A DNA stretch of 64,000 bases from Clostridium sp. CAG:508 (lineage in GTDB: Bacteria; Bacillota; Clostridia; Lachnospirales; Lachnospiraceae). Within the stretch, counting starts at the first letter, position 1; each line of letters begins with the position of its first letter. Location of the stretch: positions 5,959 to 69,958 of the forward strand of contig CAVJLL010000005.1 of the NCBI GenBank assembly GCA_963650385.1, given 5' to 3'. Position numbers and translations under genes: made by a program. The notes under the pieces were generated by a model, which was given only the letters and a program-made list of their open reading frames with translations, searched no databases and was not told where the DNA came from. Positions 9,992 to 52,433 of this stretch are shown here, one piece after another.

Positions 9992-10045
9992 AGAACGCCG
10001 ATGGATCGCTGTCAGCGGAACAAGAATTCCCTCTGACAGATGAAC

Positions 10046-29374: not shown

Positions 29375-30307
29375 ATGAGCGAATCATCCGGATCCATCAA
29401 CAAAGGACGTGCCTCCCTGGCCGGTGCACTTCTCACACTTGCAGGCGGTGCCTGCTGGGGGCTTTCCGGCTCCATGGGGCAGTATCTGTTCAACCACGAG
29501 GGCATGGACGTCCGCTGGCTGGTTCCCATTCGCCTGGGCCTCGCCGGCCTGATTCTCCTGACCTTCTGCGCCGTTCGGGGCGGCAAGCATATTTTCGATC
29601 CCTGGAAGGATGCGCAGGACCGGAAGGAGCTGCTGATCTATGGCCTCGCCGGTGTATCGGCCTGTCAGTTTCTGTACTTTACGACCATTCAGCTCTCCAG
29701 CGCGGCCGTCGGCACCATTCTGCAGGACCTCTCACCCGCAATGATATTGCTGGTTTCCTGTGTCCTGGCAAGGCGAAGGCCAAGGCTGATGGAGATTCTG
29801 GCGATCGTCCTGGCGCTTGTCGGTGTCTTTCTCCTCTCCACCGGCGGAAATCTGGAGCACATGCAGGTATCTCCTGCCGCGCTCGCCACAGGCGTTCTCT
29901 GCTCGGTCTGCGTCACCATCTACAACATGGTGCCCGGGCGGCTGATGACCCGGTATTCGGTCCTTCTCCTGCAGGGGTGGTCCTTCCTGATGGGAAGCGC
30001 CGCCATCGCCCTGATCTTCCGCTCCTGGACCTGGCACTATGTTCCCACGGCAATGGGGTGGTTTGGTGTCGGCTTTGTCGTTCTGGTCGGCAATGTGCTG
30101 GCTTTCCCGCTCTACATTCAGGGGCTTAAATACATCGGACCGGAGAAGGGGAGCCTCTACGGCTTCTCCGAACCGGTTACCGCCGCCATCCTATCGGCCA
30201 CGGTCCTTGGCAGCAGCTTCACCTTCCTGGACGGCGTCGGCTTTGCCGCCATCTTCCTGATGCTGGTGCTGATCTCGGTTTCCGGGAGGAAAAACAAATC
30301 TGCATAA
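29375..30307 (+). CDS. EamA/DMT-superfamily transporter
   Basis: 310 aa with about 10 TM segments in two EamA-like halves. GGAGA RBS. Confidence 0.8.
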   Translation: MSESSGSINKGRASLAGALLTLAGGACWGLSGSMGQYLFNHEGMDVRWLVPIRLGLAGLILLTFCAVRGGKHIFDPWKDAQDRKELLIYGLAGVSACQFLYFTTIQLSSAAVGTILQDLSPAMILLVSCVLARRRPRLMEILAIVLALVGVFLLSTGGNLEHMQVSPAALATGVLCSVCVTIYNMVPGRLMTRYSVLLLQGWSFLMGSAAIALIFRSWTWHYVPTAMGWFGVGFVVLVGNVLAFPLYIQGLKYIGPEKGSLYGFSEPVTAAILSATVLGSSFTFLDGVGFAAIFLMLVLISVSGRKNKSA

Positions 30308-30372: not shown

Positions 30373-31410
30373 TTACTCGATGACGTGGATCCAGCCTTCC
30401 GGTGCCTCCAGCTCGCCTTCCTGGATGCCCAGCAGCGTGGAGCGGAGCTTGCCCATCCACGGTCCGATCTCGTCCATGCCGGATGCCAGTGCGTAATCCG
30501 TGCCATGATCGTTGATCTTGCCGATCGGGCTGATGACGGCTGCGGTTCCGCAGAGGCCGCACTCCTTGAAGTTTCCGTCCTTTACCTCCTGCCAGTATAC
30601 CGGACGCTCGTCTACCGTCATGCCGAGGTAGTGCTCTGCAACGTATACAAGGCTTCTTCTCGTGATGGACGGGAGGATGGAATCGGACTTCGGAACAACC
30701 AGATGATCGTCCTGATCCACGAAGAGGATGTTGGCGCCGCCGGTCTCCTCGATCTTCGTTCTGGTAGCCGCATCGAGATAGATGTTCTCGGCAAAGCCCT
30801 CTGCATGAGCCGTCACAATTGCGTGCAGACTCATTGCGTAGTTCAGGCCGGCCTTAATGTTGCCGGTTCCGTGCGGTGCTGCGCGGTCAAAATCACTGAT
30901 CTTCACGTAGATCGGCTTTGCGCCGCCCTTGAAGTACGGTCCGACCGGTGTCGTAAATACGCGGTACTGATAGTCATCCGCCGGCTTCACGCCGATAACC
31001 GGGCTGATGCCGAATACATACGGACGAATGTAGAGGCTAGCGCCGGTTCCGTACGGCGGAACCCATGCGGTGTTGGCCTTTACCACCTGGTGAATGGAAT
31101 CCACGAACTGCTCTACCGGAAGCGGCGGGATCTCCAGACGCTTTGCAGAGTCATACATTCTCTGTCCGTTCATGTCCGGGCGGAAGCATACAATGTGTCC
31201 GTCCTTTGTCGTATATGCCTTCAGGCCCTCGAATACCGACTGGCTGTACTGCAGAACGCCGGCATCCTCGCTCATAACGATCATATCGTCATCAATCAGG
31301 GCACCCTCGTCCCACTTGCCTGCCTCCGCCTTATAGTTGGCGACATAGCGCTTGTCCGTCTTCATATATGTGAAGCCGAGATTCGACCAGTCCAGATTCT
31401 TTTTCTCCAT
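30373..31410 (-). CDS. ilvE: Branched-chain amino acid aminotransferase
   Basis: 345 aa, fold-type IV aminotransferase pattern (...GTGNIKAGLNYAMSL..., EECGLCGTAAVISPI). GAGGAGG RBS. Confidence 0.9.
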   Translation of the reverse strand: MEKKNLDWSNLGFTYMKTDKRYVANYKAEAGKWDEGALIDDDMIVMSEDAGVLQYSQSVFEGLKAYTTKDGHIVCFRPDMNGQRMYDSAKRLEIPPLPVEQFVDSIHQVVKANTAWVPPYGTGASLYIRPYVFGISPVIGVKPADDYQYRVFTTPVGPYFKGGAKPIYVKISDFDRAAPHGTGNIKAGLNYAMSLHAIVTAHAEGFAENIYLDAATRTKIEETGGANILFVDQDDHLVVPKSDSILPSITRRSLVYVAEHYLGMTVDERPVYWQEVKDGNFKECGLCGTAAVISPIGKINDHGTDYALASGMDEIGPWMGKLRSTLLGIQEGELEAPEGWIHVIE

Positions 31411-31648: not shown

Positions 31649-31759
31649 GCAGATATCTTTCCGAACGTTTCAGGCACTGTGCACCAGATGTTGTCTTCCG
31701 ATGTGTTTATACCGGACGTTCATCAATCTGATTGACGCACTGCCAGAAAGGAGTTTGAT

Positions 31760-32713
31760 ATGAAATGGACGCAAAAGGAATTGGAGGAGCTCTACCAGAA
31801 GGTTAACCATGCATGTTCGACAGACCCCGAATTCCGAAACAGATTTATAAAGGATCCCAAATCCGCAATGGAGGAGATCGCCGGAGCTCCCCTTCCGGAT
31901 GATTTCCAGCTGCCGCTGATCGAGGCAGACAGCAGCTATCAGGCCTCTTACTGTGTTCCTGAATTCTCATCCGGTGAACTGGATATCCGGAAATTGCAGA
32001 GCGTATATGGCGGTGCCGGGGAGGATCAGAGTGCTCCTGCCGATTCATCCGGCACCGGTCCCAGTGATCCGCAATCTGCAATCTCTTTTCTTCTGATCTT
32101 TTCAGCCTGTGGTGCAGCAATCTCCGTGGGTCCTTGCGGTGGGGATGCCTGCGGAGCCGCTGCCTGCCCGGCAGATGCATGTGGCGGCAAGGCATGTGCT
32201 GCCGCCGCATGCGGCGGCTTTGCCTGTGCAGGCAATGCACAGGCCGTAGAAGGATGCGGCTCGCATATGGGTGTAGCCGAGGCGTCAGTCGTAGCCGGGT
32301 GCGGCGTGGCAGCATGCACCTCTGATGCCGCCTGGCTCGCTGCATGCGGATACGATGTCTTCTGTGTCGGTGCAGCTTGCGGTGCCAAAGTTTCCGCTGC
32401 GTCCTTCGCCTGTGCCGGTGACTTATGCGGTGCACATGGCTGCGGAGCAGATGCGCTCTGCGGCCTAGCAGTCTGCGCCGCCGATGCTACAGGTGTTAAA
32501 GTTGCGGATTTCGGAGGAGCCTGCGGCGCTAATGTCTGCGGCGCAAAATTAGGCTGCATGCCTGATTCATGCGGTGCAAACTATACGGGAACGAACATTG
32601 GCTGCAACGCCGATGTATGCGGTGCACACGGCTGCGGAGCAGCAGCGAGTGAAGGAGGCAGTGATGGCAGTGATGGCGGCGCTGACAATGCCGTCGACAG
32701 CATTGTCAGCTAG
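31760..32713 (+). CDS. RiPP precursor candidate: NHLP-type leader (aa 1-85, ends ...LQSVYGG) plus 232-aa Gly/Ala/Cys-rich core with 26 Cys
   Basis: Strong RBS (AAAGGAG, then 7 nt to the ATG). The leader MKWTQKELEELYQKVNHACSTDPEFRNRFIKDPKSAMEEIAGAPLPDDFQLPLIE...SGELDIRKLQSVYGG matches the nitrile-hydratase-like leader pattern as I remember it (xDPxFRxxLxxDPKxAxxE..G..LP...GG). Core Cys span residues 117-292 (nt 32108-32635), and 15 of the 25 inter-Cys gaps are exactly 4 residues. It is convergent with the maturase/export operon. Confidence 0.8.
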   Translation: MKWTQKELEELYQKVNHACSTDPEFRNRFIKDPKSAMEEIAGAPLPDDFQLPLIEADSSYQASYCVPEFSSGELDIRKLQSVYGGAGEDQSAPADSSGTGPSDPQSAISFLLIFSACGAAISVGPCGGDACGAAACPADACGGKACAAAACGGFACAGNAQAVEGCGSHMGVAEASVVAGCGVAACTSDAAWLAACGYDVFCVGAACGAKVSAASFACAGDLCGAHGCGADALCGLAVCAADATGVKVADFGGACGANVCGAKLGCMPDSCGANYTGTNIGCNADVCGAHGCGAAASEGGSDGSDGGADNAVDSIVS

Positions 32714-32742: not shown

Positions 32743-32780
32743 TAAAAAGAGTCAGCCTCCTCGGCTGACTCTTTCCTTTT
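32743..32780. terminator. Bidirectional intrinsic terminator between the precursor gene and the giant gene
   Basis: TTAAAAAGAGTCAGCC-TCCTC-GGCTGACTCTTTCCTTTT, a 10-bp stem with an A-run on one side and a T-run on the other. Confidence 0.8.
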
Positions 32781-35700
32781 AACCTGCTTTTCTCCTTCTC
32801 TGCCTGTACCAGGCATATAAGCCCATCAAAGAGCCCGCGCTGAAAATCAGCCACATCCAAGATCTGCTTTCATCACCGGTTTCCTGAATCGCAGGACCTT
32901 TTGAGACACTGTCTGCGTTCTGTGCATCGAGGGAAATTACATCTGCATTCCGATTTAATATGAATTTCCTGATGCCCTTCACCTGTCCGTCTGCCGATCC
33001 ATATCCGCCGACATCTCCAACGCTGTGCTTGTACAATAGCGTCCCGCAGCCGCAGTTCAATCCGTCTCCGGTATCCTGTTTGTAAAACAGAACTTCAATT
33101 CCGCCCAGCTCTCCGTCACTGCTGCGGCCGTATGCCACGGTATACACACCATATTCATCGGTCGCCTGCAGTCCGCACAGAATGCGGTACCGGTATCCCT
33201 GTGCGATTTCGACCCGCACACGATCTCCCGGCTCCAGGCTCGTCTGATCTGCGATCTCCGCTCCCGTATCCGCCCAATACAGCTTCAGCGCATTTTCATC
33301 CAATTCTCCTATGGTATGAAGGATCCGAATGGTTGCCGTGCTGCCGTCTGCGCTGATCTCCGGGTCTCCCAGCAATATGTGATCTCCGAATGCAAATACA
33401 GTCTGATCCGAGAACACGGCGTTGTACCCCTTTGCTGCCTGAATGGTCACGGTGCTCACGTATTGCCTGCCTTCACGGAACTCTGCATCAGGCAGCAGAA
33501 TCGTCTCCATTCCGGAGGCGGCATCATACTGACTCCAGCTCACGGAATAGGTGTACCTTCCGCCCGTTACGGATGTCAGATATGTCTGCAGCAAATTGTT
33601 CTGAACCTTGCTGTCCAATTTAGAGAGCGACCCTGAAGCCCAGCCATCTCCCACCGGAATTCCTCCCGCCTGCGCAATATAGTATTCCAGATACGCATCT
33701 CCCAAAATGTAATTCTTAACGAGCTGTTTGCCTGTCCCGGCTGCCGCACTTGCGCTTCCGGATGAATGCGTGTCTGCATTCTGCCCAGAATCCCTGCTTT
33801 GCCGTTTCACTGCAGCAATGGCATGCTGATACAGTTGGTTCTCACAACCGCAGCCGTCGCTGTCCGCTTCTGTGATAACCATGAGCTCAATATGTGACCA
33901 GCTGCGTCCGCCGGAGCTTCCCCGGACTACGCGGAATATTTTCTTTCCATCCGCGGTTGTTTCGCCGGTATCGATGAGTCCGCCCATAATGTATACACTG
34001 TATCCATCCGCAGCAGAAAGAGTGATTCGATCGTTTGCCTTCAGCTCCTCCTCGTAAGGAATGATCTTTCCGGTATCTGCACGTCGCAGGACAACAATAC
34101 TGCGCACAGGCTCCGTCACCGGGAGCTTATGGAGAATTTTAATCGTTGCTGTCTTCCCGTCGTCACTGATCTGAGGTGTCCCCACCAGTGTGTGGTTCGC
34201 AGCGATGAATTCTGTATTCTGCAGGAACACATGCTGATACTCGTCCAGCGCTGTAAATGTCACTGTGCTGACGTACTGCTGCCCGGCAATGAAGTAACCG
34301 TCATCGTCAAGCGGCTGCTCGCTCTTCGTTTGTTCATCGTATCCCGTCCACTTTACATTTACGGTCATGGATCCCGACAGCATTTTGTTCAGAAGCTTTT
34401 CCAGCAGATTGTCCTTTACTCTTCCGTATACACCTCTGTATGAACCGTTCTTCCATCCATCTCCTGTCGGAATTCCGCAGCCGTTTACCGCAAATTGCCG
34501 CATTACCTTCTCATTCAGATTGAAGTGACGAATTGCCGCAGTATTAAGGCACGCCTTCCATGTGTAGAGATAGGATCCGCAGCCGCACGGAGCGTCTGAA
34601 GCCCCGGCGCTTCCCGTTTCCCTCGGCACAACGGAAATTTCAATCTGCCCGGATGCGCCTTCACCGGATGTGTCCTTCTTCACCGTGTAGATGCGGCAGG
34701 TTTTCCCCTTATAGGGAATGGTGTCCGTCGTAGCCGCCAGTCCGTTTACGATCTGAGCATTCTTCACACTGCCATTGATCCAGATGATAACCTCATCACC
34801 TGCATAGAGGATCTCATCCTTTCCCAGTTCTGTCACTTCCTTTGTATTGTCATCTACCCTGTACAGCGTCGGTTTCTCTGTTTCTTTAAGATTTCCTGTC
34901 CTGTGCGTCACCGTGAGTACGGCAGTTTTCCCGTCGGTGCTGAGCTCAACATCCTCCTCTTTTATGTCATGCTGATAAATGGTAAACTCGGTTTCCTTTG
35001 TAAATAACGACTTGAATCCAGTATTAATCTTAATCTGCAGCCTGCAGCGATAGTCCGTATCCGCCTCGAAATGGTCATCCGGCTTCACTGCAACCCATGT
35101 TCCTTTTTCCTCACTGTCATCCGGCACCCATTTCTGCCATTCGCTGATGCTGTGTGTGTACAGCTTATCATCTAACTTCGTGTTAAACAGGCTGTCCAGG
35201 GCCTTCGCCCACTCTTCAGACACCTCTTTTGCTGTACACGTCTTCGTTTTAGTGCTCTCCCATCCGCCGTTCCACACAGGAATGGTGCCAAAGGAATCCG
35301 CCAGTGTGCTCATGTCGTTTGCTGTCAATGCATACGAAGAGATCTGATCGGGGTTTACCGCCGCAATCGCATGCTGATACAGCAGGTTCTCACAGCCGCA
35401 GCCATCGCTGCCGGCCTTCGGGATAACCGTAAGTGCAATCTGTGACAGCGTCTTTCCGTCTGAGCCTTCCCGAACCACGCGGTATATCTTCTTGCCCTCC
35501 GCGGTCACTTCACCGGTATCAGCAAGTCCGGATATAATCGATACACTGTATCCCTCCTCTGCCGAAACGGTAATCCGGTCCTTCACCTCCAGTTCTTCCT
35601 TATAAGGAATGCTTTTTCCGGTATCTGCATGCTGCAGAGTGACGATTTTATGCAGTGATTTCACCGCCGGAAGCGTGTGGAGAATCTTGATCTCCGCGGT

Positions 35701-38700
35701 TGTTCCGTCTTCACTAATCTCCGGCTCTCCAATCAGTGTGTGGTTAGCTGCAGTAAATTCTGCATTTTGCAGAAAAATGTGCTGATACTTTTCCAACAGC
35801 GTAAATGTCACTGTACTGATATACTGGTGCCCGGCAATAAAGCAGTCGTCATCCGTAAGCGGCCGCTCGCTCTTCGTCTGCTCATCGTATTCCGTCCATT
35901 TCACCTTTACGGTCATGGCTTCCTTCAGCAGGCTGCTCAGGAACGTTTCCAGCTGATTGTCCTTTACCTTTCCGTATTCTTCACTGTACGAACCGTCTTC
36001 CTCTCTTGCCGAAATTCCGGAATTCTTCTCTGCAAACTGCTGCATTTTCTCTGCAGAAAAATCCATCCGATGAATTGCTGCAACATCGGTGCGCGCCTTC
36101 CATGTGTAGAGATAGGATCCGCAGCCGCACGGAGCTTCTGAAGTCCCGGCGTCCCCAGTTTCCTTCGGAACAACAGAAATTTCAATCTGCCCGGACGCGC
36201 TTTCACCGGCTGTGTCCTTCTTCACCGCATAGACACTGTATTTGATTCCCTCATAGGTAATGGTCTCCTTCGTACCGGTCAGGCCGCTTACGATCTGGCA
36301 GCTCTTCGTATTGCCGTTGACCCGGATGATCACCTTATCTTCCGCATAGAGGACATCATCCTCCCCCAGCTCCGTCACTGCCTTTGTTTTGTCATCCACC
36401 CTGTACAGCGTCGGCTTCTCTGTTTCTCTAAGATTTCCTGTCCTGTGCGTCACCGTGAGTACGGCGGTTTTCCCGTCGGCACTGAGCTCAATGTCCGCGT
36501 CATCTATGTCGTGATGGTATATGGAAAACTCCGTTTCCTTTGTAAATAATGACTTGGAATCCGCGTTGATTTTAATCTGCAGCCTGCAGCGATACTCTGT
36601 ATCCGCCTCGAAATGATCATCCGGATTTACTGCAACCCATGTTCCTTTTTCCTCACTGTCATCCGGCACCCATTTCTGCCATTCGCTGATGCTGTGTGTG
36701 TACAGCTTATCATCCAGCTTCGTGTTAAACAGGCTGTCCAGGGCCTTCGCCCACTCTTCAGACACCTCTTCTGCTGTACATGTCTTCGATTTGGTGCTTT
36801 CCCATCCGCCGTTCCACACAGGAATGGTGCCGAAGGAGTCGGCCAATGTGCTCATGTCATTCGCTGTCACGGTATACGAGGAGATCTGATCGGGATTTAC
36901 CTCCGCTATCGCATGCAGATACAGCAGATTCTCGCAGCCGCAGCTGTCGGTGCCGGCATCCGGAATAACCGCAAGCTCAATCTGTGACAGCATCGTTCCG
37001 GCTGTGCTTTGCCGAACCACGCGGTATATTTCTTTTCCGTCCTCGGTTTTCTCTCCAGTATCAACAAGCCCATCCACGATACACACATTGTATCCGTCCT
37101 CTGCCGAAACGGTGATTCTGTCTTTTACCTCCAGTTTTTCCTCGTAAGGAATGTTCTTTCCGGTATCTGCATGCTGCAGAGTGACAATTTCGCTCACCTG
37201 CTTCTTCACTGCCGGAAGCTTATGAACAACAACAATTGTTGCGGTTTGTCCGTCCTCACTGACCGAAATCTCAGGTCTCACCAACTGACCAATCCACGGG
37301 CTCGAACTATATGTTGAAAGCGTGTGGTTTGCCACTTTAAACACTGTATCCTGCAGGAAGATATGCTTATACTCTTTCAGCAGCGTAAATGTCACTGTGC
37401 TGACGTATTGGTGTCCGGCATAAAAATAGTCATTGTCGCGCAGTTCCCGCTTTATATGCGTTCCTTCCTCCAGCTCTGCCCATTTGACCGTTACTGTCAT
37501 GGCTCCCTTCAGCTTATCGTTCAGGAAGTTTTGCAGCTGGTTATCCTTTACCTGTCCGTATCCTTCACGCTCCGAGCCGCCTATTGCCTGAATCCCGCGG
37601 CTGTTTTCTGTGAACTGCTGCAACATTTCCTCGCCAAGCTCCAGCTTATGAATCGCTTCAATATCCATGCAGGCCTTCCAAGTATAGAGAAAAGACTCAC
37701 AGCCGCAGGTATAGAGATTACTCCCCTCCTCAATGGCCGTTGCCTTCGGCATGACTGCAATTTCAACCTGATCGGATGTGCCTTCACCGGATGTCGTCTT
37801 TTTCACCCGATAAACGGGGTAGTTGGTTTCCTTATAGGTGACGGTGTCCTTCGTTTCTACCAGTCCGCTTACGATCCGGCATCCCTGCAGATTTCCCTTT
37901 GTCAGTACGATGACCTCATCACCTGCATAAAGCGTGTCATTTATACTGTCCACTTCGTCTGTTACTTGCTTTTCGCCGTCATACGTCTCCACCACCCTGT
38001 ACAGCGTCGGTGTTACATCTTCAAGGGAAGGAAGGCCGGTCCTGTGATAGACCTTAATGGTTGCTGTCTTTCCATCACTTGTAAGATCTACCTTTACCGT
38101 GTTGTGCCCGGAAATGGAAAATTTCGTTCCTGAGGTGAACACTGCATCGTAATCATCATTGATTTTAATCTGTATTTCGCAGCTGTATTCCGTATCATCT
38201 TCAAAATGGTCATCCGGCCCCAGATCGACCCACGATCCCTGTACCAGATCCGGCCCCCATTTCTTCCATCCGCTTATGCTGTGCGAGTAGAGCTTGTTGT
38301 TAAACAGACTGTCCAATGCCCTTTTCCATTGTGCAGACACTTCCTCTGTCGTACATTGCCTCACCTTGGTGCTCTTCCATCCCTTACTCCACATCGGAAT
38401 TCCGCCAAGATTAACAGCAAATGCGTACATATCATTCGCTGATATCGTATACGAAGGGATCTGGTAGGTTGACGCTTCCTCTTCCGTTGTTTTCCGGATC
38501 AGTGCATAGATTCTCTTATCCTTTTCTACGTTTCCTTTCCCCTGGACCCATTCCGTATAATGGCAAACGCATTGCAGCACATAGTAATGCTGCATGGTCA
38601 ATCCGGCCGTATCCATGGCATACGTATAGGTTCCCCCGCGCGGTTCATACGTTGTGACCCCTTCTCTGTTCGGATTCGGCTGCACATCCTTAAAGACCTC

Positions 38701-40917
38701 AATTTGCGAATTCAGGGGGATCTCCTTCCCATCCTTATCCCTCAGCACAGAATCATTTTTCTCATCCAGGCGAATTCCCTCCGGAAGATTTTCGCCCAGA
38801 TCATATGCATACAGGGAAAGTGTACAGTTCACATGGCTCGAAATCCATGGTTCGTTTGTATATTGGATTTCAACCGGCAGGAGCTCCGACACATTGGTTA
38901 CCGTATAATCTTTATCCGATTCCGTCCTTGTCAGCTGCGCCGGCTGATGAATGCTCAGCTTGGTTGAATCAATATTAAATTTATCTATGCCTTTCTGATT
39001 TGTAAAAAAGCTAATCGTCCCGTAGCTTCCATAGGTTTCCGATTCGGAACTGCTGTCCCACACCTTCAAAAGGAATGGATTGCACGAATAATCCGCCGCC
39101 TTGTCATAAAAGATATTCCATTTTGCTTCATACCCACGCACGCGACCATCCCGATCATCCGCTTCACCGGGGCCCAGCGTCTCTTTTCCTTGCAGCTGAA
39201 GATATCGGTTCTCCTGCGGCTTCAGCTCCGACGGTACTGTTTCCGGTGTATAGGCTGTATACGCCAGCGACCTTCCCTGCAATGTATATACCCCAAAATT
39301 GAGGTGAAGCTCTCGATCTGTCAGATTCTTAAATGTAACATGCAGCATGATATTCCCGTCCTTATCTGCCGCAACATTTTCCTGTTTCATGCTGCAGGTA
39401 AAGGCAGCCGGCACCCCCTTATCCTCTGTATACGTAAAGAGTACCGATTCGTCGGTGTCCGGGAAGAGGATCGGTGTCGAGGTGATCGCATTGGAGCTAA
39501 AATACGAGGCCAGCTCCTTCATCGTAATCTTCCCATCTCCCTGATATCCATCCCGCTTTTCACCACTGTCGAGGCTGGAGATATCTGCGCCGTATGTGTG
39601 GTAGCTATCCACATAACGGTCATGGCCCAGCGCGTGCTCCATGGCCGAAATCAGCTCCGTTCCATACTCCTTCTGCTGAATTCCGGTTTCCATTCTGGTT
39701 GCAGAAGCAATGAAATAGAATTTATGTCCTCCTGCTGCGTTCGCTGCATCTGCGGTATCGGAAGCCTCTGCCGCTTCATCAAGATCATCATAAAACTCTG
39801 TAAGGAAGCTGTAGCCAAATGCATCCGACACTGCCTGCACCTGTTCCTGGACTTCCTGCGGAGAGCTCTCCTGTTCGGCATCCTCGTCCTCTTCGTCCAG
39901 ATCCTCATACAGCGCGGCTGCGTTTACCGCATTTCCGGACAACATTCCTCCGGAAAAGCAGCTTGCCAGCACGACAAATACTTTCCCGTTCAGTTTCTTC
40001 AGATTGGACTTCAGCTCGCCGGCGCTGATGTTATTGCCTCCCTCCAGCGCCAGATAAGAAGAGCCGTCTCTTGTCTGGTTTCCATGTCCGATATAGCAGA
40101 AGAAGGTATACGAATCTTCATCCGTCTGCTCTGCAGCGGCACTGACCGCGTCCCAGATCTTCGATTTCTGGTCCTCCTGACTGTTGTACGTGACGCCAAT
40201 CAATGTGATATCTTCACTCTGAAACTCATTGGTCTGACTGAGGGTATCCCGCATTGCCTCCGCATCCTTTTTCGGAGTCTCTCCAAGATCACTACCCGTC
40301 ATATACACCAGGATAGCTCGCCCCTTCACCTGCCGATCTTCCGAAGAATTTTCCGACGCAGCTGCTGCAGACTTTCCATTGGTATCGCCTTCTGCGGAAT
40401 TTACGGATGAAGCCTTTTCTGCAGAATTCGACTGCGCATCCTCTTTTGCGGACTCTGTCTGTGTACTGCCTTCGGAGGAATTCGCCGATGCAGCACCCTC
40501 CGTGGAGCCTTCCTTTGCACTGCCTTCGGAAGAATTTCCCGACGCAGCACTCTCCGTAGAACCTTCCTTTGCACTGCCTTCGGAAGAATTTTCCGATGCC
40601 GCGCCTTCTGCGGAATCTTCCTTTGTACTGCCTTCGGAGGAACTCACCGATGCAGCACCCTCCGTAGAATCTTCCTTTGACCTGTCTTCGGAAGAATTTT
40701 CCGATGTTATCGCCGAAGCCTTGACCTCATTCTCTGATGCAGTCTCGGAGTTTCCCTCCGCAGAAGATTCTCCCGTCTCTGCCGCAGAGGAACTCTCCTG
40801 TGTGGTTTCTGCATATGCGGTCAATGTGTTCGTCGAAGCGGCCGCAATGGGCGCAAAAGCCAGACCGGCACTCAGCGTAAATGCTATGATTCGATGCCAA
40901 AGCTTTGTCTTTTTCAT
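32779..40917 (-). CDS. Giant (2712 aa) secreted protein: signal peptide, Ser/Glu-rich spacer, clostripain-like (C11, clan CD) peptidase domain, CGC-delimited tandem repeat modules, C-terminal sorting-signal-like anchor
   Basis: I place the start at ATG 40917 (MKKTKLWHRIIAFTLSAGLAFAPIAAASTNTLTAYA, AGGGGAAG RBS), because the track's extra 115 codons overlap the upstream gene. RAILVYMTGSDLGE, then YIGHGN (His) and VVLASCFSGG (Cys at nt 39958-39960), fit the C11/clan CD His-Cys dyad. Seven CGC motifs occur at module borders. The C-terminus is IQETGDES, then a TM helix and RQRRRKAG. Confidence 0.8.
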   Translation of the reverse strand: MKKTKLWHRIIAFTLSAGLAFAPIAAASTNTLTAYAETTQESSSAAETGESSAEGNSETASENEVKASAITSENSSEDRSKEDSTEGAASVSSSEGSTKEDSAEGAASENSSEGSAKEGSTESAASGNSSEGSAKEGSTEGAASANSSEGSTQTESAKEDAQSNSAEKASSVNSAEGDTNGKSAAAASENSSEDRQVKGRAILVYMTGSDLGETPKKDAEAMRDTLSQTNEFQSEDITLIGVTYNSQEDQKSKIWDAVSAAAEQTDEDSYTFFCYIGHGNQTRDGSSYLALEGGNNISAGELKSNLKKLNGKVFVVLASCFSGGMLSGNAVNAAALYEDLDEEDEDAEQESSPQEVQEQVQAVSDAFGYSFLTEFYDDLDEAAEASDTADAANAAGGHKFYFIASATRMETGIQQKEYGTELISAMEHALGHDRYVDSYHTYGADISSLDSGEKRDGYQGDGKITMKELASYFSSNAITSTPILFPDTDESVLFTYTEDKGVPAAFTCSMKQENVAADKDGNIMLHVTFKNLTDRELHLNFGVYTLQGRSLAYTAYTPETVPSELKPQENRYLQLQGKETLGPGEADDRDGRVRGYEAKWNIFYDKAADYSCNPFLLKVWDSSSESETYGSYGTISFFTNQKGIDKFNIDSTKLSIHQPAQLTRTESDKDYTVTNVSELLPVEIQYTNEPWISSHVNCTLSLYAYDLGENLPEGIRLDEKNDSVLRDKDGKEIPLNSQIEVFKDVQPNPNREGVTTYEPRGGTYTYAMDTAGLTMQHYYVLQCVCHYTEWVQGKGNVEKDKRIYALIRKTTEEEASTYQIPSYTISANDMYAFAVNLGGIPMWSKGWKSTKVRQCTTEEVSAQWKRALDSLFNNKLYSHSISGWKKWGPDLVQGSWVDLGPDDHFEDDTEYSCEIQIKINDDYDAVFTSGTKFSISGHNTVKVDLTSDGKTATIKVYHRTGLPSLEDVTPTLYRVVETYDGEKQVTDEVDSINDTLYAGDEVIVLTKGNLQGCRIVSGLVETKDTVTYKETNYPVYRVKKTTSGEGTSDQVEIAVMPKATAIEEGSNLYTCGCESFLYTWKACMDIEAIHKLELGEEMLQQFTENSRGIQAIGGSEREGYGQVKDNQLQNFLNDKLKGAMTVTVKWAELEEGTHIKRELRDNDYFYAGHQYVSTVTFTLLKEYKHIFLQDTVFKVANHTLSTYSSSPWIGQLVRPEISVSEDGQTATIVVVHKLPAVKKQVSEIVTLQHADTGKNIPYEEKLEVKDRITVSAEDGYNVCIVDGLVDTGEKTEDGKEIYRVVRQSTAGTMLSQIELAVIPDAGTDSCGCENLLYLHAIAEVNPDQISSYTVTANDMSTLADSFGTIPVWNGGWESTKSKTCTAEEVSEEWAKALDSLFNTKLDDKLYTHSISEWQKWVPDDSEEKGTWVAVNPDDHFEADTEYRCRLQIKINADSKSLFTKETEFSIYHHDIDDADIELSADGKTAVLTVTHRTGNLRETEKPTLYRVDDKTKAVTELGEDDVLYAEDKVIIRVNGNTKSCQIVSGLTGTKETITYEGIKYSVYAVKKDTAGESASGQIEISVVPKETGDAGTSEAPCGCGSYLYTWKARTDVAAIHRMDFSAEKMQQFAEKNSGISAREEDGSYSEEYGKVKDNQLETFLSSLLKEAMTVKVKWTEYDEQTKSERPLTDDDCFIAGHQYISTVTFTLLEKYQHIFLQNAEFTAANHTLIGEPEISEDGTTAEIKILHTLPAVKSLHKIVTLQHADTGKSIPYKEELEVKDRITVSAEEGYSVSIISGLADTGEVTAEGKKIYRVVREGSDGKTLSQIALTVIPKAGSDGCGCENLLYQHAIAAVNPDQISSYALTANDMSTLADSFGTIPVWNGGWESTKTKTCTAKEVSEEWAKALDSLFNTKLDDKLYTHSISEWQKWVPDDSEEKGTWVAVKPDDHFEADTDYRCRLQIKINTGFKSLFTKETEFTIYQHDIKEEDVELSTDGKTAVLTVTHRTGNLKETEKPTLYRVDDNTKEVTELGKDEILYAGDEVIIWINGSVKNAQIVNGLAATTDTIPYKGKTCRIYTVKKDTSGEGASGQIEISVVPRETGSAGASDAPCGCGSYLYTWKACLNTAAIRHFNLNEKVMRQFAVNGCGIPTGDGWKNGSYRGVYGRVKDNLLEKLLNKMLSGSMTVNVKWTGYDEQTKSEQPLDDDGYFIAGQQYVSTVTFTALDEYQHVFLQNTEFIAANHTLVGTPQISDDGKTATIKILHKLPVTEPVRSIVVLRRADTGKIIPYEEELKANDRITLSAADGYSVYIMGGLIDTGETTADGKKIFRVVRGSSGGRSWSHIELMVITEADSDGCGCENQLYQHAIAAVKRQSRDSGQNADTHSSGSASAAAGTGKQLVKNYILGDAYLEYYIAQAGGIPVGDGWASGSLSKLDSKVQNNLLQTYLTSVTGGRYTYSVSWSQYDAASGMETILLPDAEFREGRQYVSTVTIQAAKGYNAVFSDQTVFAFGDHILLGDPEISADGSTATIRILHTIGELDENALKLYWADTGAEIADQTSLEPGDRVRVEIAQGYRYRILCGLQATDEYGVYTVAYGRSSDGELGGIEVLFYKQDTGDGLNCGCGTLLYKHSVGDVGGYGSADGQVKGIRKFILNRNADVISLDAQNADSVSKGPAIQETGDESRSWMWLIFSAGSLMGLYAWYRQRRRKAG
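33046..37707 (-). repeat. In-frame long tandem repeats inside the giant gene (period about 1542-1578 nt; two alternating module types)
   Basis: CGC codon triplets lie at 33046-54, 33844-52, 34579-87, 35392-400, 36121-29, 36934-42 and 37699-707, giving offsets of 1542 nt for 34579->36121 and 35392->36934. The near-identical shadow ORFs at 35147-35347 and 36689-36889 are also offset by 1542 nt. Confidence 0.9.
40466..40735 (-). repeat. Five tandem 54-nt repeats encoding the Ser/Glu-rich spacer (SSEGSxKEGSTEGAAS...)
   Basis: CTGCCTTCGGA(A/G)GAA recurs at 40466, 40520, 40574 and 40628, with a CTGTCTTCGGAAGAA variant at 40682, an exact 54-nt period. Confidence 0.9.
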
Positions 40918-43723: not shown

Positions 43724-43738
43724 CCTTACTCTCCTTTT

Positions 43739-45910
43739 TTATCCGGTCACCGTCTGGTAGCCGGCAAGTCTGTAAAACAATCCCTTCTGCTCCATCAGTT
43801 CTTTATAGCTTCCAATCTCTGCAATGCTGCCCTTTTCAAGTACAACAATGCGGTCACAGTGCACGACTGTTGACAACCGGTGTGCCACCACAATGCGTGT
43901 TGCATTATACGTATTCAGGCTCTGACAGATCTTCTCCTGCGATACATTGTCCAGTGCACTGGTTGCCTCATCAAACAGAAGAACGGTCGGCTGTCCGACC
44001 AGCGCCCTGGCGATCAGAATCCGCTGTCTTTCTCCGCCCGACAGAGTTCTGCCCTGCTCTGATACGAAGGTTTCCAGCCCCATCGGCATTTTCTCCACAA
44101 CATCGGTCAGCTGCGAATCCTCCACTGCCTTCTGAATTTCCTCCGGTGCAGCCTTGGGACAGGTCACCGTAATGTTGCGGCGGATCGTGCCGGAGAAGAG
44201 TCGTCCCTCCTGCAGCACCACGCCCAGCTTCTTTCTGAATTCCGGCAGGCAGAGCCTCTCCAGCGAAATTCCATCGTAATAGATCTGTCCCTTCAGCGGG
44301 GTTTCAAATCCCAGCAGCAGCCGAAGCAATGTGGATTTTCCGCAGCCGGTCTCACCGACAATTCCAATATACTCTCCCGGCTTTATATGAAGGGAAATAT
44401 CCTTCAATACCATTTCCCCCTTTTTTTCATAGCAGAAGCTCACATGGGAAAGCTCAATATCTCCCTTCAGCGCTTTCGGGATATCCCCTTCCAGACTGCT
44501 CTCCGGCTCCATCCGCAGCAGCTCGGATGACTCCACCAGTGTGGGGATCGAGGATACGATATCCATCCCCGCATTGGCCACACTGCACATTGCGGCTGTA
44601 AACGCCGTCAATGCTGTCAAAAAGCCCATAAATATGCCAATATTGATGTCCAGGTTCTGTGTCGCATAGATCCAGTACAGCACCAGCATAGACAAGGCAC
44701 TTCCGGATGTACTCAGGGCAGAGGAAAGTCTTTTGTTCCAGGCAATACTCTGATCCGCAAGCTCCGCCCCCGAAGCCAGCTCCATGTGTTCACATACTAC
44801 GTCGTCCTCCGCTCCTGCCGTTCGAATGGATTCAATTCCCTGCAGAGACTGATAGAGGAACGATCGCTGCCGACCGATGGCTCTTGATTTGTCCTGCTGC
44901 GCCCTTCGGTCCAGAAAGCCTATCCCTATCGTAATGGCAACATTCAAAACCACAAATCCGGAAGAAATATGACTCAGGAGCGAGGAATACTGATGCATCT
45001 TCCAGATGTAGATCAGCGAAAAGGCACCGCGAAGGAGGATCTGCATCGCATTCTGAAATGCACTCATATAGGTTGAATTCATTTTCTGAATTCGATAGGC
45101 CTGCTCTGCACTCTCCTTCTCACGAAAGCACTTCTCCGGGAGATGGAAAATGTGATCATAGATTGCCCCCTGCAGTGCATAGCGAACGATACTGGTAATG
45201 CGATAGTTTTCCAACGCGCCCGTTACTGTAAAACACAGGTTTGCCGCCATGCATGAAAGAAGAACAACTCCAATGCCAATCAGCTGATCCACATCGCCGG
45301 TTGGTATAATCTCATCGAAGATCAGCTGATTCAATGTTGCAAGCTGTACCGAGATCAGTGTGACAATTCCCGTACACCCTATGCAGAACAGGAAATCAGA
45401 CGGGCGAAAGGCCTTCAATGCCAATCTGAAAATATCCTGGAAGGTTACCTTTTTCGCAGGAAAGGTCCAATGGAACTCTACGGCCGTATTTTCCAGCTCC
45501 TCCAGCTCTTTCTTAGAAGCCGTATGCGAGCTTTTGTCTGCCGGATCAATCAATGTCACAGTTCCCCTGTGTCCCGGTTTACAGATCAGATATTCAGGGC
45601 TTCCCCTTTTCCTGCACAGAATGGGATAGGTCAGCATCCGGTTCCAGTTCTTATCCAGTGTTACGGATCTGGAAATGAACCCGGAAACTCTGGCAATGTC
45701 CTCCAGTCCCGCATCCTGCCCGCATGCCTCGCGCACCCGTTCATAAGGTGCAATCGTAATCCCCATCAGCTGACAAAGGTAATTGGCCGCGTCATAAAGC
45801 GAATTGCCGCTCGGCTTCATACGGCTGAACTTACGTTTGGCTTTCTTCTCGAACGTAGATAATATGATATTGCAAGTGCGAGTCTGTACGGTCGTCATAT
45901 TCTCTGACAT
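43739..45910 (-). CDS. NHLP-type bacteriocin export ABC transporter, permease/ATPase subunit (no active peptidase)
   Basis: 723 aa with a 6-TM exporter core, Walker A GETGCGKST, LSGGERQR and LLFDEATS. The N-terminal region lacks a C39 catalytic Cys context. Confidence 0.8.
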   Translation of the reverse strand: MSENMTTVQTRTCNIILSTFEKKAKRKFSRMKPSGNSLYDAANYLCQLMGITIAPYERVREACGQDAGLEDIARVSGFISRSVTLDKNWNRMLTYPILCRKRGSPEYLICKPGHRGTVTLIDPADKSSHTASKKELEELENTAVEFHWTFPAKKVTFQDIFRLALKAFRPSDFLFCIGCTGIVTLISVQLATLNQLIFDEIIPTGDVDQLIGIGVVLLSCMAANLCFTVTGALENYRITSIVRYALQGAIYDHIFHLPEKCFREKESAEQAYRIQKMNSTYMSAFQNAMQILLRGAFSLIYIWKMHQYSSLLSHISSGFVVLNVAITIGIGFLDRRAQQDKSRAIGRQRSFLYQSLQGIESIRTAGAEDDVVCEHMELASGAELADQSIAWNKRLSSALSTSGSALSMLVLYWIYATQNLDINIGIFMGFLTALTAFTAAMCSVANAGMDIVSSIPTLVESSELLRMEPESSLEGDIPKALKGDIELSHVSFCYEKKGEMVLKDISLHIKPGEYIGIVGETGCGKSTLLRLLLGFETPLKGQIYYDGISLERLCLPEFRKKLGVVLQEGRLFSGTIRRNITVTCPKAAPEEIQKAVEDSQLTDVVEKMPMGLETFVSEQGRTLSGGERQRILIARALVGQPTVLLFDEATSALDNVSQEKICQSLNTYNATRIVVAHRLSTVVHCDRIVVLEKGSIAEIGSYKELMEQKGLFYRLAGYQTVTG

Positions 45911-45922
45911 AGCATTCTCCCG

Positions 45923-48103
45923 TTATCCCTCGAGCAGTCTGCGATATTCCCCTTCCTGCTGCAGCAAGTCCTCATGCCTCCCGCATTGAACAATTCTTCC
46001 CCGGTCCATTACCAGAATCAGATCACAGCTGCGGATTGCCGACAGGCGATGTGCCACGATCACGCAGGATATTCCTCTTTCCAGGATATTCCGCATCACC
46101 TTGTCTTCCGTTTCCGGATCCATGGCACTCGTCGCCTCGTCCAGAAGGAGTATGGCAGGCTTTTCCGCCAGAGCTCTTGCGATCTGCAGCTTCTGCCGCT
46201 GGCCGCCGGAAAGATTTGCGGCACCTTCCTTCAACCGATACTCCATTCCGCCCGGCAGTGTATTGACCATGTCATAGGCATCCGCACATTTCAGTGCCTC
46301 CACCATCTCCGCCTCGGATATCTCCTTGCTCCAGAACGTCAGATTCTCACGTATGGTCCCTGCGAAAAAGAATGCACTCTGTCCGACTACAGCAATATTC
46401 TTCTTCAGAAGCTGTGGTGTCATATCCTGTATTCGAATCCCATCATACCGAATTTCACCGCTCTGCGGATATAAAATACCGGCCAATATGCGTACAAGCG
46501 TGCTCTTGCCGCAGCCGGAGGCTCCCGTGATTCCCAGGCAACTCCCCGGCATGAGCCGGAAGCTGAGTTCCTGCAGCACCGGTGCCTGGGTAGTGCGGTA
46601 GGAAAAGGTGATATTGCGAACCTCAATCTCACCCTGCAGCGGCTTTACCGGCTGATTGGCTTCCTCTTCCTTCCGGAAACGGGCATCCTCTTCGGTCCCC
46701 TCGATATCCTCTATGCTGAGCATTTCCGCCTTCAGTGTCTGAATGCTCTGGCTGTAGCCGATCAGTTCGTTCATCGGCTGCGTAAATCCGCCCAGGAGCT
46801 GCACGAAAGCGGTCAGCATGCCTGCGGTAATGCTGCCGTTAATGACCAGTACGCCGCCGATCATCAATACCACAATCTGGAAAATGCCGGAAATAACGGA
46901 CGGAAATGCACTCAGAATCTGCTGCGCCTTTCCCATGTCCTGTTCACTCCCGGTCGTCCCGCAGAAGGCCCCCAGGATGTCACTTGCATAATCTGTCTCT
47001 GCTCCGTTCGCCTTGATGGTGCTGAAGACCGACAAGCCGGCGCATAATAGGCCGGAAAGCCGGTTCTGATCCTGGCGCTGCTTCAGCGCCATTTCGCGAA
47101 GGACCTGCACCGGCAGAAGGCTTAAAACCATGTTCAGCACGGTTCCGAGCACGCCGATTGCCGTCAAGAGCGGACTGTATGTCCACAGCATCAGCAGATA
47201 AAATATCGATTCAAAGACATTCAGCACCGCATCAATCAGCTTATCTGCAAGAAAGCTGTTGATATCACCGTTGTTCTCTACCCGCTGTGACATCTCCCCC
47301 AAATATCTCTGATCAAAAAACGGGATCGGAAGGCGAAATAAATGCCGCAGCAGCTGATAGTCGGTCAGTATATTCAGCTTCAGCTTCAATTTGGCCAGGG
47401 TCGCTGACCGGACCCACCCGAGCACGATCTGCAGAACGTATACTCCCGCAAGGCACGTCAGCAGCAGCACAAGCTGACCGGTTCTGCCATTCATGACGAC
47501 ATGGTCCACATACAGCTGCAGCAGGATTGACATAAAAATGCACGGAAAAACAAGAAGTCCTCCCGCCAGCAGCAGATAGACCACCGTACTCGTCTGTCCC
47601 AAAAGGCGCTCCTGCAGCAGCCGCAGCAGATCGCTGGGCTGTTCTTTTCTCTGGAAGTGCTCCGTTTCTTCGAAGTACAGCACAATGCCGGTAAATTCCC
47701 GGTCCAGCTCCTCCCAGGTGATCTTCCGGTGCCCCCTGGCCGGGTCATTGAGGTATACCCGTTTGCCGCGAATGCCTTCCAGAACCACAAAGTGATTAAA
47801 TCCCCAGTGCAGGATACAGGGCAGCGGAAATTTCCGGAGCTCCTCCACTGATTTGGAAAAGCCATGCCCCTTCATGCCATAGTGCTCTGCCGCCAGAACC
47901 AGGTCTGCTGCACTGCTGCCGTCCCTGGATACTCCGCAGACATACCGCAGCTCCTCCATCGAGACATTGCAGTGATGATATTTCAGAATCATGAGGAGGC
48001 TGGCCGCGCCGCACTCTGCAGCCTCCACCTGAAAGACCTCCGGTGTATGAACCCGCCGCGGTTGTTTTTGTGTATCTGACTTCCGTCGTCTGCTCTTCAC
48101 CAT
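45923..48103 (-). CDS. NHLP-type bacteriocin export ABC transporter with N-terminal C39 peptidase domain
   Basis: 726 aa. The C39 triad context is intact: QVEAAECGAASL (Cys), NHFVVLE (His), LNDPARG (Asp). ABC motifs GASGCGKST, LSGGQRQK and LLLDEATS. TAATG overlap with the upstream adaptor gene. Confidence 0.88.
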   Translation of the reverse strand: MVKSRRRKSDTQKQPRRVHTPEVFQVEAAECGAASLLMILKYHHCNVSMEELRYVCGVSRDGSSAADLVLAAEHYGMKGHGFSKSVEELRKFPLPCILHWGFNHFVVLEGIRGKRVYLNDPARGHRKITWEELDREFTGIVLYFEETEHFQRKEQPSDLLRLLQERLLGQTSTVVYLLLAGGLLVFPCIFMSILLQLYVDHVVMNGRTGQLVLLLTCLAGVYVLQIVLGWVRSATLAKLKLKLNILTDYQLLRHLFRLPIPFFDQRYLGEMSQRVENNGDINSFLADKLIDAVLNVFESIFYLLMLWTYSPLLTAIGVLGTVLNMVLSLLPVQVLREMALKQRQDQNRLSGLLCAGLSVFSTIKANGAETDYASDILGAFCGTTGSEQDMGKAQQILSAFPSVISGIFQIVVLMIGGVLVINGSITAGMLTAFVQLLGGFTQPMNELIGYSQSIQTLKAEMLSIEDIEGTEEDARFRKEEEANQPVKPLQGEIEVRNITFSYRTTQAPVLQELSFRLMPGSCLGITGASGCGKSTLVRILAGILYPQSGEIRYDGIRIQDMTPQLLKKNIAVVGQSAFFFAGTIRENLTFWSKEISEAEMVEALKCADAYDMVNTLPGGMEYRLKEGAANLSGGQRQKLQIARALAEKPAILLLDEATSAMDPETEDKVMRNILERGISCVIVAHRLSAIRSCDLILVMDRGRIVQCGRHEDLLQQEGEYRRLLEG

Positions 48104-52432: not shown

Positions 52433-52433
52433 A

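Follow-up and report, generated by a model that had tools for sequence, protein, structure and literature searches.

The closest described relatives of the system reported here are found among several classes of peptides that are made by the ribosome and modified after translation (RiPPs). Systems with a nitrile hydratase-like leader peptide (NHLP) or a Nif11 leader and NHLM bacteriocin export were reportedly described by Haft and colleagues. In NHLM export (TIGR03794, TIGR03796 and TIGR03797), a pair of ABC proteins, one of which carries a C39 peptidase, occurs together with an HlyD protein beside NHLP precursors that have a double glycine. The proteusins (PoyA/PoyD/PoyB-C, landornamide and DprE2) combine an NHLP leader with a PoyD-family epimerase, and polytheonamide A carries 48 modifications (PMC8326336). 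In the ranthipeptides (PapA/PapB, CteA/CteB), a short leader is bound by a RiPP recognition element (RRE) domain, and a SPASM enzyme acts on repeated Cys-Xn-Asp motifs. PapB forms six Cys-S to Asp-C-beta (or Glu-C-gamma) thioethers in CX3D, in-line or nested, accepts n = 1-5 and processes CX1-5D to completion (PMC9413430). Sactipeptides of gut Firmicutes, e.g., ruminococcin C, have hydrophobic, Ala/Gly-rich, multi-Cys cores, in which thioethers are installed by radical S-adenosylmethionine (SAM) enzymes (PMC8326336). These cores are ∼40-45 aa long and have hairpin C-alpha links. The subject of the present analysis is a 64,000-nucleotide stretch of DNA from Clostridium sp. CAG:508 (GenBank assembly GCA_963650385.1, contig CAVJLL010000005.1), hereafter the window, and in particular an open reading frame (ORF) of 317 codons that encodes a cysteine-rich protein with an NHLP-type leader. 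This ORF is very probably the RiPP precursor of an operon located at 40959-48720 of the same window.

The window system shares with the proteusins an NHLP leader that is homologous in both sequence and fold, an epimerase of the PoyD family and a Gly/Ala/Val/Asn-rich core, whereas a SPASM maturase and a cysteine ladder are added here. We know of no characterised proteusin with either addition, and none was found in our literature searches. The core is 4-8 times longer than that of polytheonamide A, and the hosts are anaerobic gut Clostridia. As in ranthipeptides, a SPASM enzyme and repeated Cys-containing motifs are present; however, the core carries 26 cysteines instead of 6, in CX2[D/N/E/A] instead of CX3D motifs, and the short RRE-bound leader is replaced by an NHLP leader accompanied by an epimerase. 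Sactipeptides resemble the window system in core composition and radical SAM enzymology, but have neither an NHLP leader nor an epimerase. The interpretation that we favor, with reasonable though lesser assurance than the link to the operon, is that the ORF is the A-peptide precursor of a RiPP whose maturation depends on its leader and on tailoring by radical SAM enzymes, in a system that mixes proteusin with ranthi/sactipeptide features. This RiPP would acquire thioether rings and D-residues, be cleaved at the double glycine and be exported.

The leader is a genuine proteusin-type NHLP domain. The model TIGR03793 matched residues 9-85 of the window precursor over model positions 3-77 of 77 (E=2.9e-8), and was matched by all 25 of the aligned family members (best 5e-15). 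The family profile matched PDB entry 9CJX, the nuclear magnetic resonance structure of the leader of the proteusin DprE2, with E=1.7e-14, in an alignment that stops at that protein's own C-terminal AGG, and also matched 8TB1 (E=6.5e-6). In a Foldseek search with the leader model, 9CJX ranked first (E=7.5e-4, template-modelling score of 0.61 on the target). A first-pass annotation of the window, made from the sequence alone, had proposed an NHLP leader at residues 1-85 and its verification with the TIGR03793 hidden Markov model; the proposal was borne out by each of these searches, the model being matched over its full length at a score under the curated cutoff. Thirteen leader residues (M1, W3, Q5, L8, E9, Y12, D22, G42, L45, L51, P67, E73 and L79) were invariant in the family alignment, in which the N-terminus M-x-W-T-Q-K-E-L-E-E is conserved. 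Two cysteines, C19 and C65, are located in the leader, beyond the 26 of the core.

The double-glycine site named in the same annotation is indeed encoded at nt 32009-32014. The residues leading to it are E-L-D-I-R-K-L-Q-S-V-Y-G-G, with hydrophobic residues V at -4, L at -7 and L at -12. Hydrophobic residues at -4, -7 and -12 are the pattern of double-glycine leaders cut by C39 peptidases. Of the 48 family precursors, 43 have a double glycine upstream of the conserved hydrophobic segment (see below); in the alignment designated A1, it is present at the aligned site in 19 of 25 sequences.

The precursor gene itself is an uninterrupted frame, and the strong ribosome-binding site claimed for it is evident 6 nt upstream of the start codon. 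A GC-rich hairpin, located between this gene and a convergent giant gene, has a fold energy of -22.1 kcal/mol (z=-4.8; none of 200 shuffles was equally stable); it was missed by a consensus terminator scan, though strong by folding, and is probably a bidirectional terminator. No + strand promoter and no terminator were called at the precursor in the promoter/terminator scan, no regulatory RNA was detected near it in an Rfam scan of window positions 20000-50000, and no Pfam family matched it at E≤0.01. The window was also searched for a second precursor, by tblastn with the leader and by a six-frame scan for Cys ladders, and none was found.

The operon lies on the opposite strand, 8-16 kb from the precursor, and comprises five genes (Table 1). 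The radical SAM genes, which the first-pass annotation had described as neighbouring, are not adjacent to the precursor: they occupy 40959-43723 (-), with an 8.1-kb gene between. The precursor, SPASM maturase, PoyD-type epimerase, C39-ABC, second ABC protein (ABC2) and short HlyD were found together in more than 20 loci, in accord with the proposed link to a SPASM radical SAM enzyme. When the window operon proteins were compared by tblastn with 27 family loci (SPASM enzyme, 59-80% identity; PoyD-like enzyme, 35-59%), all five operon genes adjoined the precursor in essentially every locus with enough flank, in three arrangements: co-directional after the epimerase, divergent from the HlyD gene, or convergent. 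The exact layout of the window recurs in locus L029 (GCA_963594865.1), in which a convergent precursor is 58% identical and the giant protein has a 1643-aa orthologue. Furthermore, a 98%-identical copy of the operon was identified in locus L030, and a 98%-identical operon fragment in run SRR19415677. Over all family loci, the identity of the SPASM maturase was 59-81%. A PoyB/C-type B12 radical SAM C-methyltransferase (TIGR03975) is encoded in 16 of the family loci, but is absent from the window and its nearest relatives.

The same data bear on the view that the ORF encodes no more than an ordinary protein, secreted or of low complexity, or is a spurious frame in GC-rich repeat DNA, which lies in the vicinity of the operon by chance. 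The 8 kb that separate it from the enzymes, its location on the other strand, the long opposite-strand ORFs that overlap it and the lack of a Pfam match would all be in keeping with such a view. They are countered by the conservation of the leader at the protein level, with its invariant residues, by the homology to the solved NHLP leader 9CJX, by the ribosome-binding site and terminator hairpin, and by the recurrence of the same five genes beside the precursor in more than 20 loci and three orientations. Because of this synteny, a spurious or ordinary ORF is effectively refuted and is regarded as highly improbable.

Table 1. Coordinates of the precursor gene, its parts and the linked genes in the window.
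Feature	Position	Strand	Remarks
Ribosome-binding site AAAGGAG	31747..31753	+	6 nt ahead of ATG, read from sequence
Precursor gene, 317 aa + stop	31760..32713	+	uninterrupted 317-codon ORF
NHLP-type leader, residues 1-85	31760..32014	+	double glycine G84-G85 at end (nt 32009-32014)
Acidic Ser/Pro-rich linker AGEDQSAPADSSGTGPSDPQ	32015..32074	+	alignment
Conserved hydrophobic segment SAISFLLIFSACGAAISVG, residues 106-124	32075..32131	+	invariant S109, C117, A120
Cysteine ladder, residues 117-292, 26 Cys, 15 C-x4-C steps	32108..32635	+	
Acidic Gly/Ser/Asp tail GAAASEGGSDGSDGGADNAVDSIVS	32636..32710	+	
12-bp GC-rich hairpin	32746..32774	.	flanked by A-run and U-rich run; between convergent precursor and giant genes
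Giant surface protein, ∼2712 aa from MKKTKLW	32779..40917	-	starts 41 nt after epimerase stop
PoyD-type radical SAM peptide epimerase, 464 aa	40959..42353	-	TIGR04517 305.8 bits, cutoff 325
Radical SAM/SPASM peptide maturase, 457 aa	42350..43723	-	Radical_SAM and Fer4_12 domains
NHLM-type ABC permease/ATPase without peptidase domain (ABC2)	43739..45910	-	TIGR03797 604.6 bits, cutoff 709
NHLM-type ABC exporter, N-terminal C39 peptidase	45923..48103	-	TIGR03796 807 bits, cutoff 853; PF03412 E=3e-36
Short HlyD-like protein, 205 aa, one N-terminal transmembrane segment	48103..48720	-	TIGR03794 107.7 bits, cutoff 156

Of the two radical SAM genes, one encodes the SPASM maturase; the other was found to encode a PoyD-type epimerase instead of a second thioether synthase. 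The cysteines of the epimerase are arranged as C134-x3-C138-x2-C141, with a further C303; the CxxxCxxC triad and the additional invariant Cys are common to eight orthologues. In PoyD, a conserved Cys serves as the H-atom donor (PMC8326336), and C303, given its invariance in the eight orthologues, would fit this role. Orthologues in loci L001 and L005 pass the TIGR04517 cutoff (331.8 and 329.2 bits, respectively), and no solved structure was found for a PoyD-like enzyme.

The maturase carries a CxxxCxxC motif and C-terminal Cys clusters, and belongs to a clade of 460 clusters at E≤1e-50. Its scores were below the cutoffs throughout: 216 bits for Clo7bot and 214.4 for CefB (cutoffs of 600 in both cases), 185 for TIGR04463 and, on the characterised equivalogs, 121 of 340 for PapB, 106 of 425 for SCIFF and 110 of 500 for CcpM. 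The enzyme is equidistant from Clo7bot and TIGR04463, and no current NCBIfam equivalog covers either the precursor or the maturase. Among solved structures, the maturase matched the thioether synthase CteB best (5WGG, 1.1e-19); anSME and SkfB came next and were also significant.

For the three export proteins, TIGR03796, TIGR03797 and TIGR03794 were the best matches, all below the equivalog cutoffs, in which respect they differ from the described NHLM systems. The HlyD protein is a short form: it covers positions 290-420 of the 421 in TIGR03794, i.e., the C-terminal third, and an HlyD-like protein of ∼200 aa is conserved in the family loci. The active site of the C39 domain is intact, with Q, C, H and D all in place, so that the cleavage at the double glycine by a C39 ABC exporter, as proposed at first pass, would be served by the linked operon.

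The possibility that the precursor is of the thiazole/oxazole-modified microcin (TOMM) or heterocycloanthracin type, with Cys cyclodehydrated to thiazol(in)es, was suggested by the fact that NHLP leaders also front TOMM precursors and by the Cys-Gly-rich core repeats; in addition, 4 of the 25 family members weakly matched the Burkholderia TOMM model TIGR03795 via the leader. Neither a YcaO/cyclodehydratase nor a dehydrogenase was detected in the window cluster or among the Pfam-labelled genes of the family loci. TOMM chemistry was rejected, since YcaO is absent from the scanned window ORFs and these family-locus genes, and is considered the remotest of the alternatives.

The 232-aa core, described at first pass as dominated by Gly, Ala and Cys, has the composition A57 G43 C26 S19 D17 V16 and a net charge of -17. 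Across the family, the precursors share four parts, namely a conserved leader, a variable acidic linker (∼4 to 27 residues), a conserved hydrophobic segment and the ladder. The hydrophobic segment (consensus x-S-x-x-L-I-V-S-x-C-A-A-A-x-S-V-G-P-C) has a mean Kyte-Doolittle hydropathy of 1.93 over 19 residues, the maximum of the protein, and includes the only helix (residues 111-119) that was predicted in the core by AlphaFold2 (AF2) from the family alignment. Apart from this helix, the predicted local distance difference test (pLDDT) score was ∼30 beyond residue 100, without strands, as against 89-95 for residues 1-50; a confident leader and a disordered core fit the expectation for a RiPP substrate. 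Candidate roles for the hydrophobic 19-mer are membrane insertion or anchoring of the product, or that of a second enzyme-recognition element. A lipobox reading of the LIFSAC motif was considered and rejected: many relatives have V, I or Y at position -1, and the motif is found 117 residues into the protein, behind a folded leader.

The ladder was as first reported: all 26 cysteines fall between residues 117 and 292, and the gaps between them are 8,4,4,4,4,4,4,9,14,4,9,5,4,10,4,4,5,4,15,4,5,4,10,4,4. In 200,000 shuffles of residues 117-292, the mean number of C-x4-C steps was 1.98 and the maximum 9, and none reached the 15 observed. Similarly, 18 of the 25 Cys-to-Cys distances are divisible by 5, versus 3.5 expected. 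Conservation of the Cys pattern, for which a check had been recommended, is evident in the homologues, in which ladder and leader are both kept and the columns C126, C131, C141 and C151 are invariant. Among 47 precursors, the inter-Cys gaps were 4 (649 times), 5 (199), 9 (85), 8 (40), 10 (23) and 14 (8); the ladder of the family is therefore of period five with occasional missing rungs.

At the DNA level, the internal duplication noticed at first pass was recovered: CGAHGCGA occurs at residues 223-230 and 287-294 (nt 32426 and 32618, 192 nt apart), the two copies being identical at 26 of 29 nucleotides. The 15-nt units that underlie the pentads are degenerate (63-79% identical), and the sole repeat reported by Tandem Repeats Finder was a 9-nt SDG repeat in the tail, with no array in the ladder. 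A recent tandem duplication of the ladder was rejected on these grounds, which indicate that the ladder is old and that its pattern is maintained by selection at the protein level.

The pentad consensus is C-[G/A]-[G/A]-[D/N/E/A]-[A/V]. Within the C-x4-C steps of the 47 precursors, Gly or Ala occupies positions C+1 and C+2, and Ala, Val or Gly position C+4, while position C+3 (D 32%, N 20%, A 19%, E 12%, K 8%) holds nearly all of the functional side chains. Where the ladder is interrupted, in 128 gaps of at least 8, the G/A-G/A-[D/E/N]-A unit stays behind the upstream Cys: D/N/E account for 52% at C+3 versus 27% at C-2 relative to the downstream Cys, a site at which D/N are rare. As D/N/E follow the upstream Cys at the breaks, the module is C-x-x-[D/N/E], which conforms to the logic of ranthipeptide motifs. 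On balance, we lean slightly toward conversion of the ladder cysteines to thioethers; that the C+3 residue is the acceptor is a more tentative proposition and rather doubtful.

The principal alternative retains the same system and export with a different chemistry: C-alpha sactionines, long-range nested links between rungs (forming a hairpin or rod), or formylglycine-type oxidation of Cys or C-C links, in which case the D/N at C+3 would be structural (Asx turns). Such a chemistry would accommodate the large minority of pentads in which C+3 is Ala, Lys, Gln, His or Tyr, the sactipeptide-like Ala/Gly-rich hydrophobic composition, the significant matches of the maturase to anSME and SkfB and the position of this enzyme outside every characterised equivalog. 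In addition, when read as A-[D/N]-[A/V]-C-G, the repeat is similar to A(D/N)LXX, the consensus of pentapeptide-repeat proteins. A structure of the pentapeptide type is contradicted by the lack of a Pfam repeat and of an AF2 beta-helix; a pentapeptide-repeat beta-helix was accordingly rejected (no Pfam match, core pLDDT ∼30 without strands). The enrichment of D/N/E after the upstream Cys, even at ladder breaks, and the precedent of PapB, which forms short in-line Cys-Xn-Asp rings (PMC9413430), both speak against another chemistry, which is regarded as a real but distinctly less probable outcome.

A further alternative is that the ladder cysteines stay free and that the exported product serves in thiol-based binding of metal or Fe-S, as a redox scaffold or as a surface material, while radical SAM modification is confined to a few other residues. 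The density of 26 cysteines in a Gly/Ala matrix, the net charge of -17 and the acidic tails of relatives (down to -88) would suit such a role; moreover, extracellular thiols persist in strictly anaerobic hosts, and synteny with a giant surface protein was observed. On the other hand, in each of the ladder families that were examined, a SPASM maturase from the clade of Cys-rich-peptide enzymes accompanies the ladder protein, and the enzyme (59-81% identity) is far more conserved than the core, as is typical of a maturase that acts on a repeated motif. No metal-handling genes were conserved in the family loci. Free thiols are consequently thought improbable.

Under the favored interpretation, that of a thioether-bearing RiPP, the following sequence of events is proposed. 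The 85-residue NHLP domain would dock the unfolded Gly/Ala/Cys core onto the operon enzymes. The SPASM maturase could then move down the pentad ladder and convert most of the 26 cysteines into thioether bridges, for which C+3 (C-x-x-D/N/E) would be the likeliest acceptor, giving a chain of small in-line rings, and the PoyD-type epimerase would convert selected L-residues to D-residues. Cleavage after G84-G85 would be performed by the C39 domain of the NHLM ABC exporter, and the two ABC proteins together with the short HlyD would release from the cell an anionic product, ∼232 residues long and with a net charge of -17. This product would start with the linker and a hydrophobic helix, which is probably membrane-inserting or anchoring. 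Finally, the giant caspase-like protein, presumably co-transcribed in the subclade of the window, may trim the conserved linker, in which the peptide AGEDQSAPADSSGTGPSDPQSAISF is a candidate substrate of its caspase-like domain.

Several observations weigh against this interpretation. In the case of the precursor, the window leader scores 33.4 bits on TIGR03793, below the curated cutoff of 50.9; 5 of the 48 family precursors lack a double glycine upstream of the hydrophobic segment, and in alignment A1 it is absent at the aligned site in 6 of 25 members, two of which have one a few residues further on. The gene lies 8 kb from the enzymes, on the opposite strand and with no promoter called. The window enzymes themselves are below the cutoffs (PoyD, 306 versus 325; SPASM equivalogs, at most 216 versus 600), as is the match of the core to the CefA model NF038108 (29.2 bits, E=6.3e-7, residues 129-166; cutoff of 30). 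As to the chemistry, SPASM enzymes also perform reactions other than thioether formation, such as formylglycine, C-C or C-O links. The C+3 residue is Ala or Lys in ∼27% of the pentads, which is a poor fit to a carboxylate-requiring ranthipeptide synthase and a better one to a C-alpha (sactionine) enzyme. Moreover, a membrane-active bacteriocin would not typically bear a net charge of -17.

The same C-x4-C ladder in a Gly/Ala/Asp matrix is known from CefA (NF038108), whose model was matched by 21 of the 25 relatives (best 2e-13); true CefA members score 38-85 bits. Its maturase, CefB (NF038107), is of the same broad clade as the window maturase, which is not a member of that family; nor does the window precursor, below the CefA cutoff, count as a member. 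Both Cef-type systems and the family of the window system include C39-ABC exporters and often B12 radical SAM C-methyltransferases. In contrast to the window precursor, the true CefA matches are without an NHLP leader. They are proteins of 267-858 aa, mostly ending in IIPIIPGI (similar ladder proteins are 387-910 aa), and their N-terminal regions consist either of ∼175 non-NHLP residues ending in ...VVGG (P0107) or of 600-740 aa with ricin-lectin/beta-gamma-crystallin domains. The two ladder loci examined (L028 and L031) encode TIGR04463-family maturases and B12 methylases, but no PoyD-type epimerase. The first-pass annotation had recognised no described C-x4-C family with an NHLP leader; the ladder itself proved to be catalogued, as CefA/CefB, while its NHLP-led form was encountered in no model or paper found.

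The window system is an unpublished, unmodelled variant, in which a catalogued motif is joined to well-known RiPP machinery. Its workings would combine those of a proteusin (NHLP leader, PoyD enzyme) with those of a SPASM system acting on a Cys ladder, and no curated equivalog includes it. Our literature searches yielded no publication on the Cys-every-fifth (Cef), Clo7bot or other ladder systems, and nothing on the conjunction of radical SAM, NHLP, cysteine-rich and thioether; the OhkR/FlmR paper covers only the accessory arginase of a Cef-like locus. No description was found of a system in which a SPASM maturase for a Cys ladder occurs alongside the enzymology of proteusins (NHLP leader and PoyD epimerase, with PoyB/C-like methylases in relatives).

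Some of the ladder proteins of the Cef type are of considerable size. In proteins of 680-910 aa (P0109/L031 8001-10040; P0122, P0136 and P0159; P0107/L028) that contain ricin-lectin, beta-gamma-crystallin and FRG1/fascin-like domains, the last 100-150 residues are a ladder with IIPIIPGI at its end. The ladder gene of L031 adjoins genes for a B12 radical SAM methylase and a SPASM maturase of the TIGR04463 type. The impression is of full-size proteins that undergo radical SAM modification. Locus L028 also contains a gene for a peptide-arginase-like protein (4043-4930; PF12640, FlmR_OhkR_N), which suggests ornithine formation in some of the ladder peptides.

A word-indexed search of 5.8 billion protein clusters returned 27 homologues of the window precursor (34-52% identity), those with names being designated "hypothetical". 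In a pattern scan of GTDB representative genomes, 20 loci were detected, all in metagenome-assembled genomes (MAGs) from rumen, goat, rabbit and other gut sources, classified as Lachnospiraceae, Ruminococcaceae, Candidatus Limivicinus, Anaerovoracaceae and "Clostridia"; the best match to the window precursor among these representatives was 45%. An exhaustive profile search of 1.84 billion representatives gave 38 matches at E≤1e-30 and 197 at E≤1e-10. In total, ∼48 distinct precursors were collected, all from MAGs of gut or rumen Clostridia. Their cores after the double glycine are 46-397 residues long (median 205) and net anionic without exception (-1 to -88), and the precursors contain 4 to 40 cysteines. 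The description of the window precursor as oversized consequently applies in comparison with characterised RiPPs, but not within its own family, where 232 aa is typical. Two or three paralogous precursors are encoded in loci L009 and L015.

If the proposed chemistry holds, ribosomal natural products would be extended from ∼50 residues or fewer to cores of 200-400 residues with dozens of enzyme-installed cross-links. A bolder and quite speculative extension, which we consider unlikely on present evidence, is that of "RiPP proteins" of 200-400 residues, in which two to three dozen consecutive thioether macrocycles and D-residues form a protease-proof anionic rod. In the subclade of the window, the giant protein, anchored to the wall, would process this rod or display it on the cell. 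Instead of acting as a diffusible antibiotic, the rod would then have a structural or interaction role at the surface of rumen Clostridia. If true, this rod-like polymer would exceed any characterised RiPP in size several times over. The system occurs widely in MAGs of Lachnospiraceae and Oscillospirales from rumen and gut, and in these communities its product could be of consequence for competition or surface biology. From a practical standpoint, peptide engineering would gain an attractive catalyst for iterative cross-linking in this maturase, which is highly conserved (59-81% identity) and would act on a simple, hypervariable repeat of five residues.

The giant gene is located between the precursor and the operon, its stop facing that of the precursor across the 12-bp hairpin. 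The encoded protein begins with a signal peptide; it further comprises a region rich in Ser and Glu, a clan CD (caspase-like) domain at about residues 170-600, repeated domains that end in CGC motifs and a C-terminus of TGDE, a hydrophobic stretch and RRRK, resembling a sorting-signal anchor. The caspase-like domain, with the motifs YIGHG and LASCFSGG, scored 25.3 bits on PF00656 (gathering score 21.4), while the orthologues in L009 and L029 scored 33.5 and 20.0, respectively; weaker matches to CHAT, C13 and Raptor_N were also observed. The orthologues are located at 12880-17811 in L029 (44-52% identity) and 66-1841 in L009, and the domain His (YxGHG) and Cys (SxCxSGG) are kept in all three proteins. 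A search for homologues of the giant N-terminus gave one weak match, probably swamped by the Ser/Glu-rich region. Only in three of the family loci, namely the window, L029 and L009, does the giant gene follow the epimerase. The linker sequence between the double glycine and the hydrophobic segment, AGxDQSAP...D(P/A)QS, is likewise kept only in these three loci, i.e., in the subclade that also carries the giant protein. A role of this protein in second-step trimming or in surface display is hypothesized.

Additional variation was observed among the members of the family. Five short precursors from rabbit Lachnospiraceae MAGs (L021 and L023-L026, at ∼10001-10396) are 131 aa long, with a 46-aa core and 5 Cys, and keep the hydrophobic segment and the same enzyme set; these may offer the easiest entry to the chemistry. 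In P0035 (171 aa), compared with the L009 precursor at 10001-11056, the whole ladder is deleted, whereas leader, linker, hydrophobic segment and tail are kept, which suggests that recombination between pentads alters the length of the ladder. Acidic tails are longer in the relatives than in the window precursor. Very long post-ladder tails are found in L018 (10001-11449) and L015 (7976-9247), and one long tail consists of repeated DDSGDGLDAPDDINDTGDGLDVPD units with a net charge of -88. In P0026 (413 aa), a C39 peptidase fragment is fused to a family precursor in one gene call, probably as the remnant of an exporter gene directly upstream.

On the other side of the precursor, the window encodes a 1032-aa protein with EAL, PAS and GGDEF domains (cyclic di-GMP turnover; 25973-29071, -), followed by an EamA transporter (29375-30307) and ilvE (30373-31410); conservation across the family loci was seen for none of these three genes. 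The RiPP operon is directly preceded, on its own strand, by a run of GT2/GT4 glycosyltransferase genes (48817-53243, -), which looks like an exopolysaccharide or teichuronic-type cluster.

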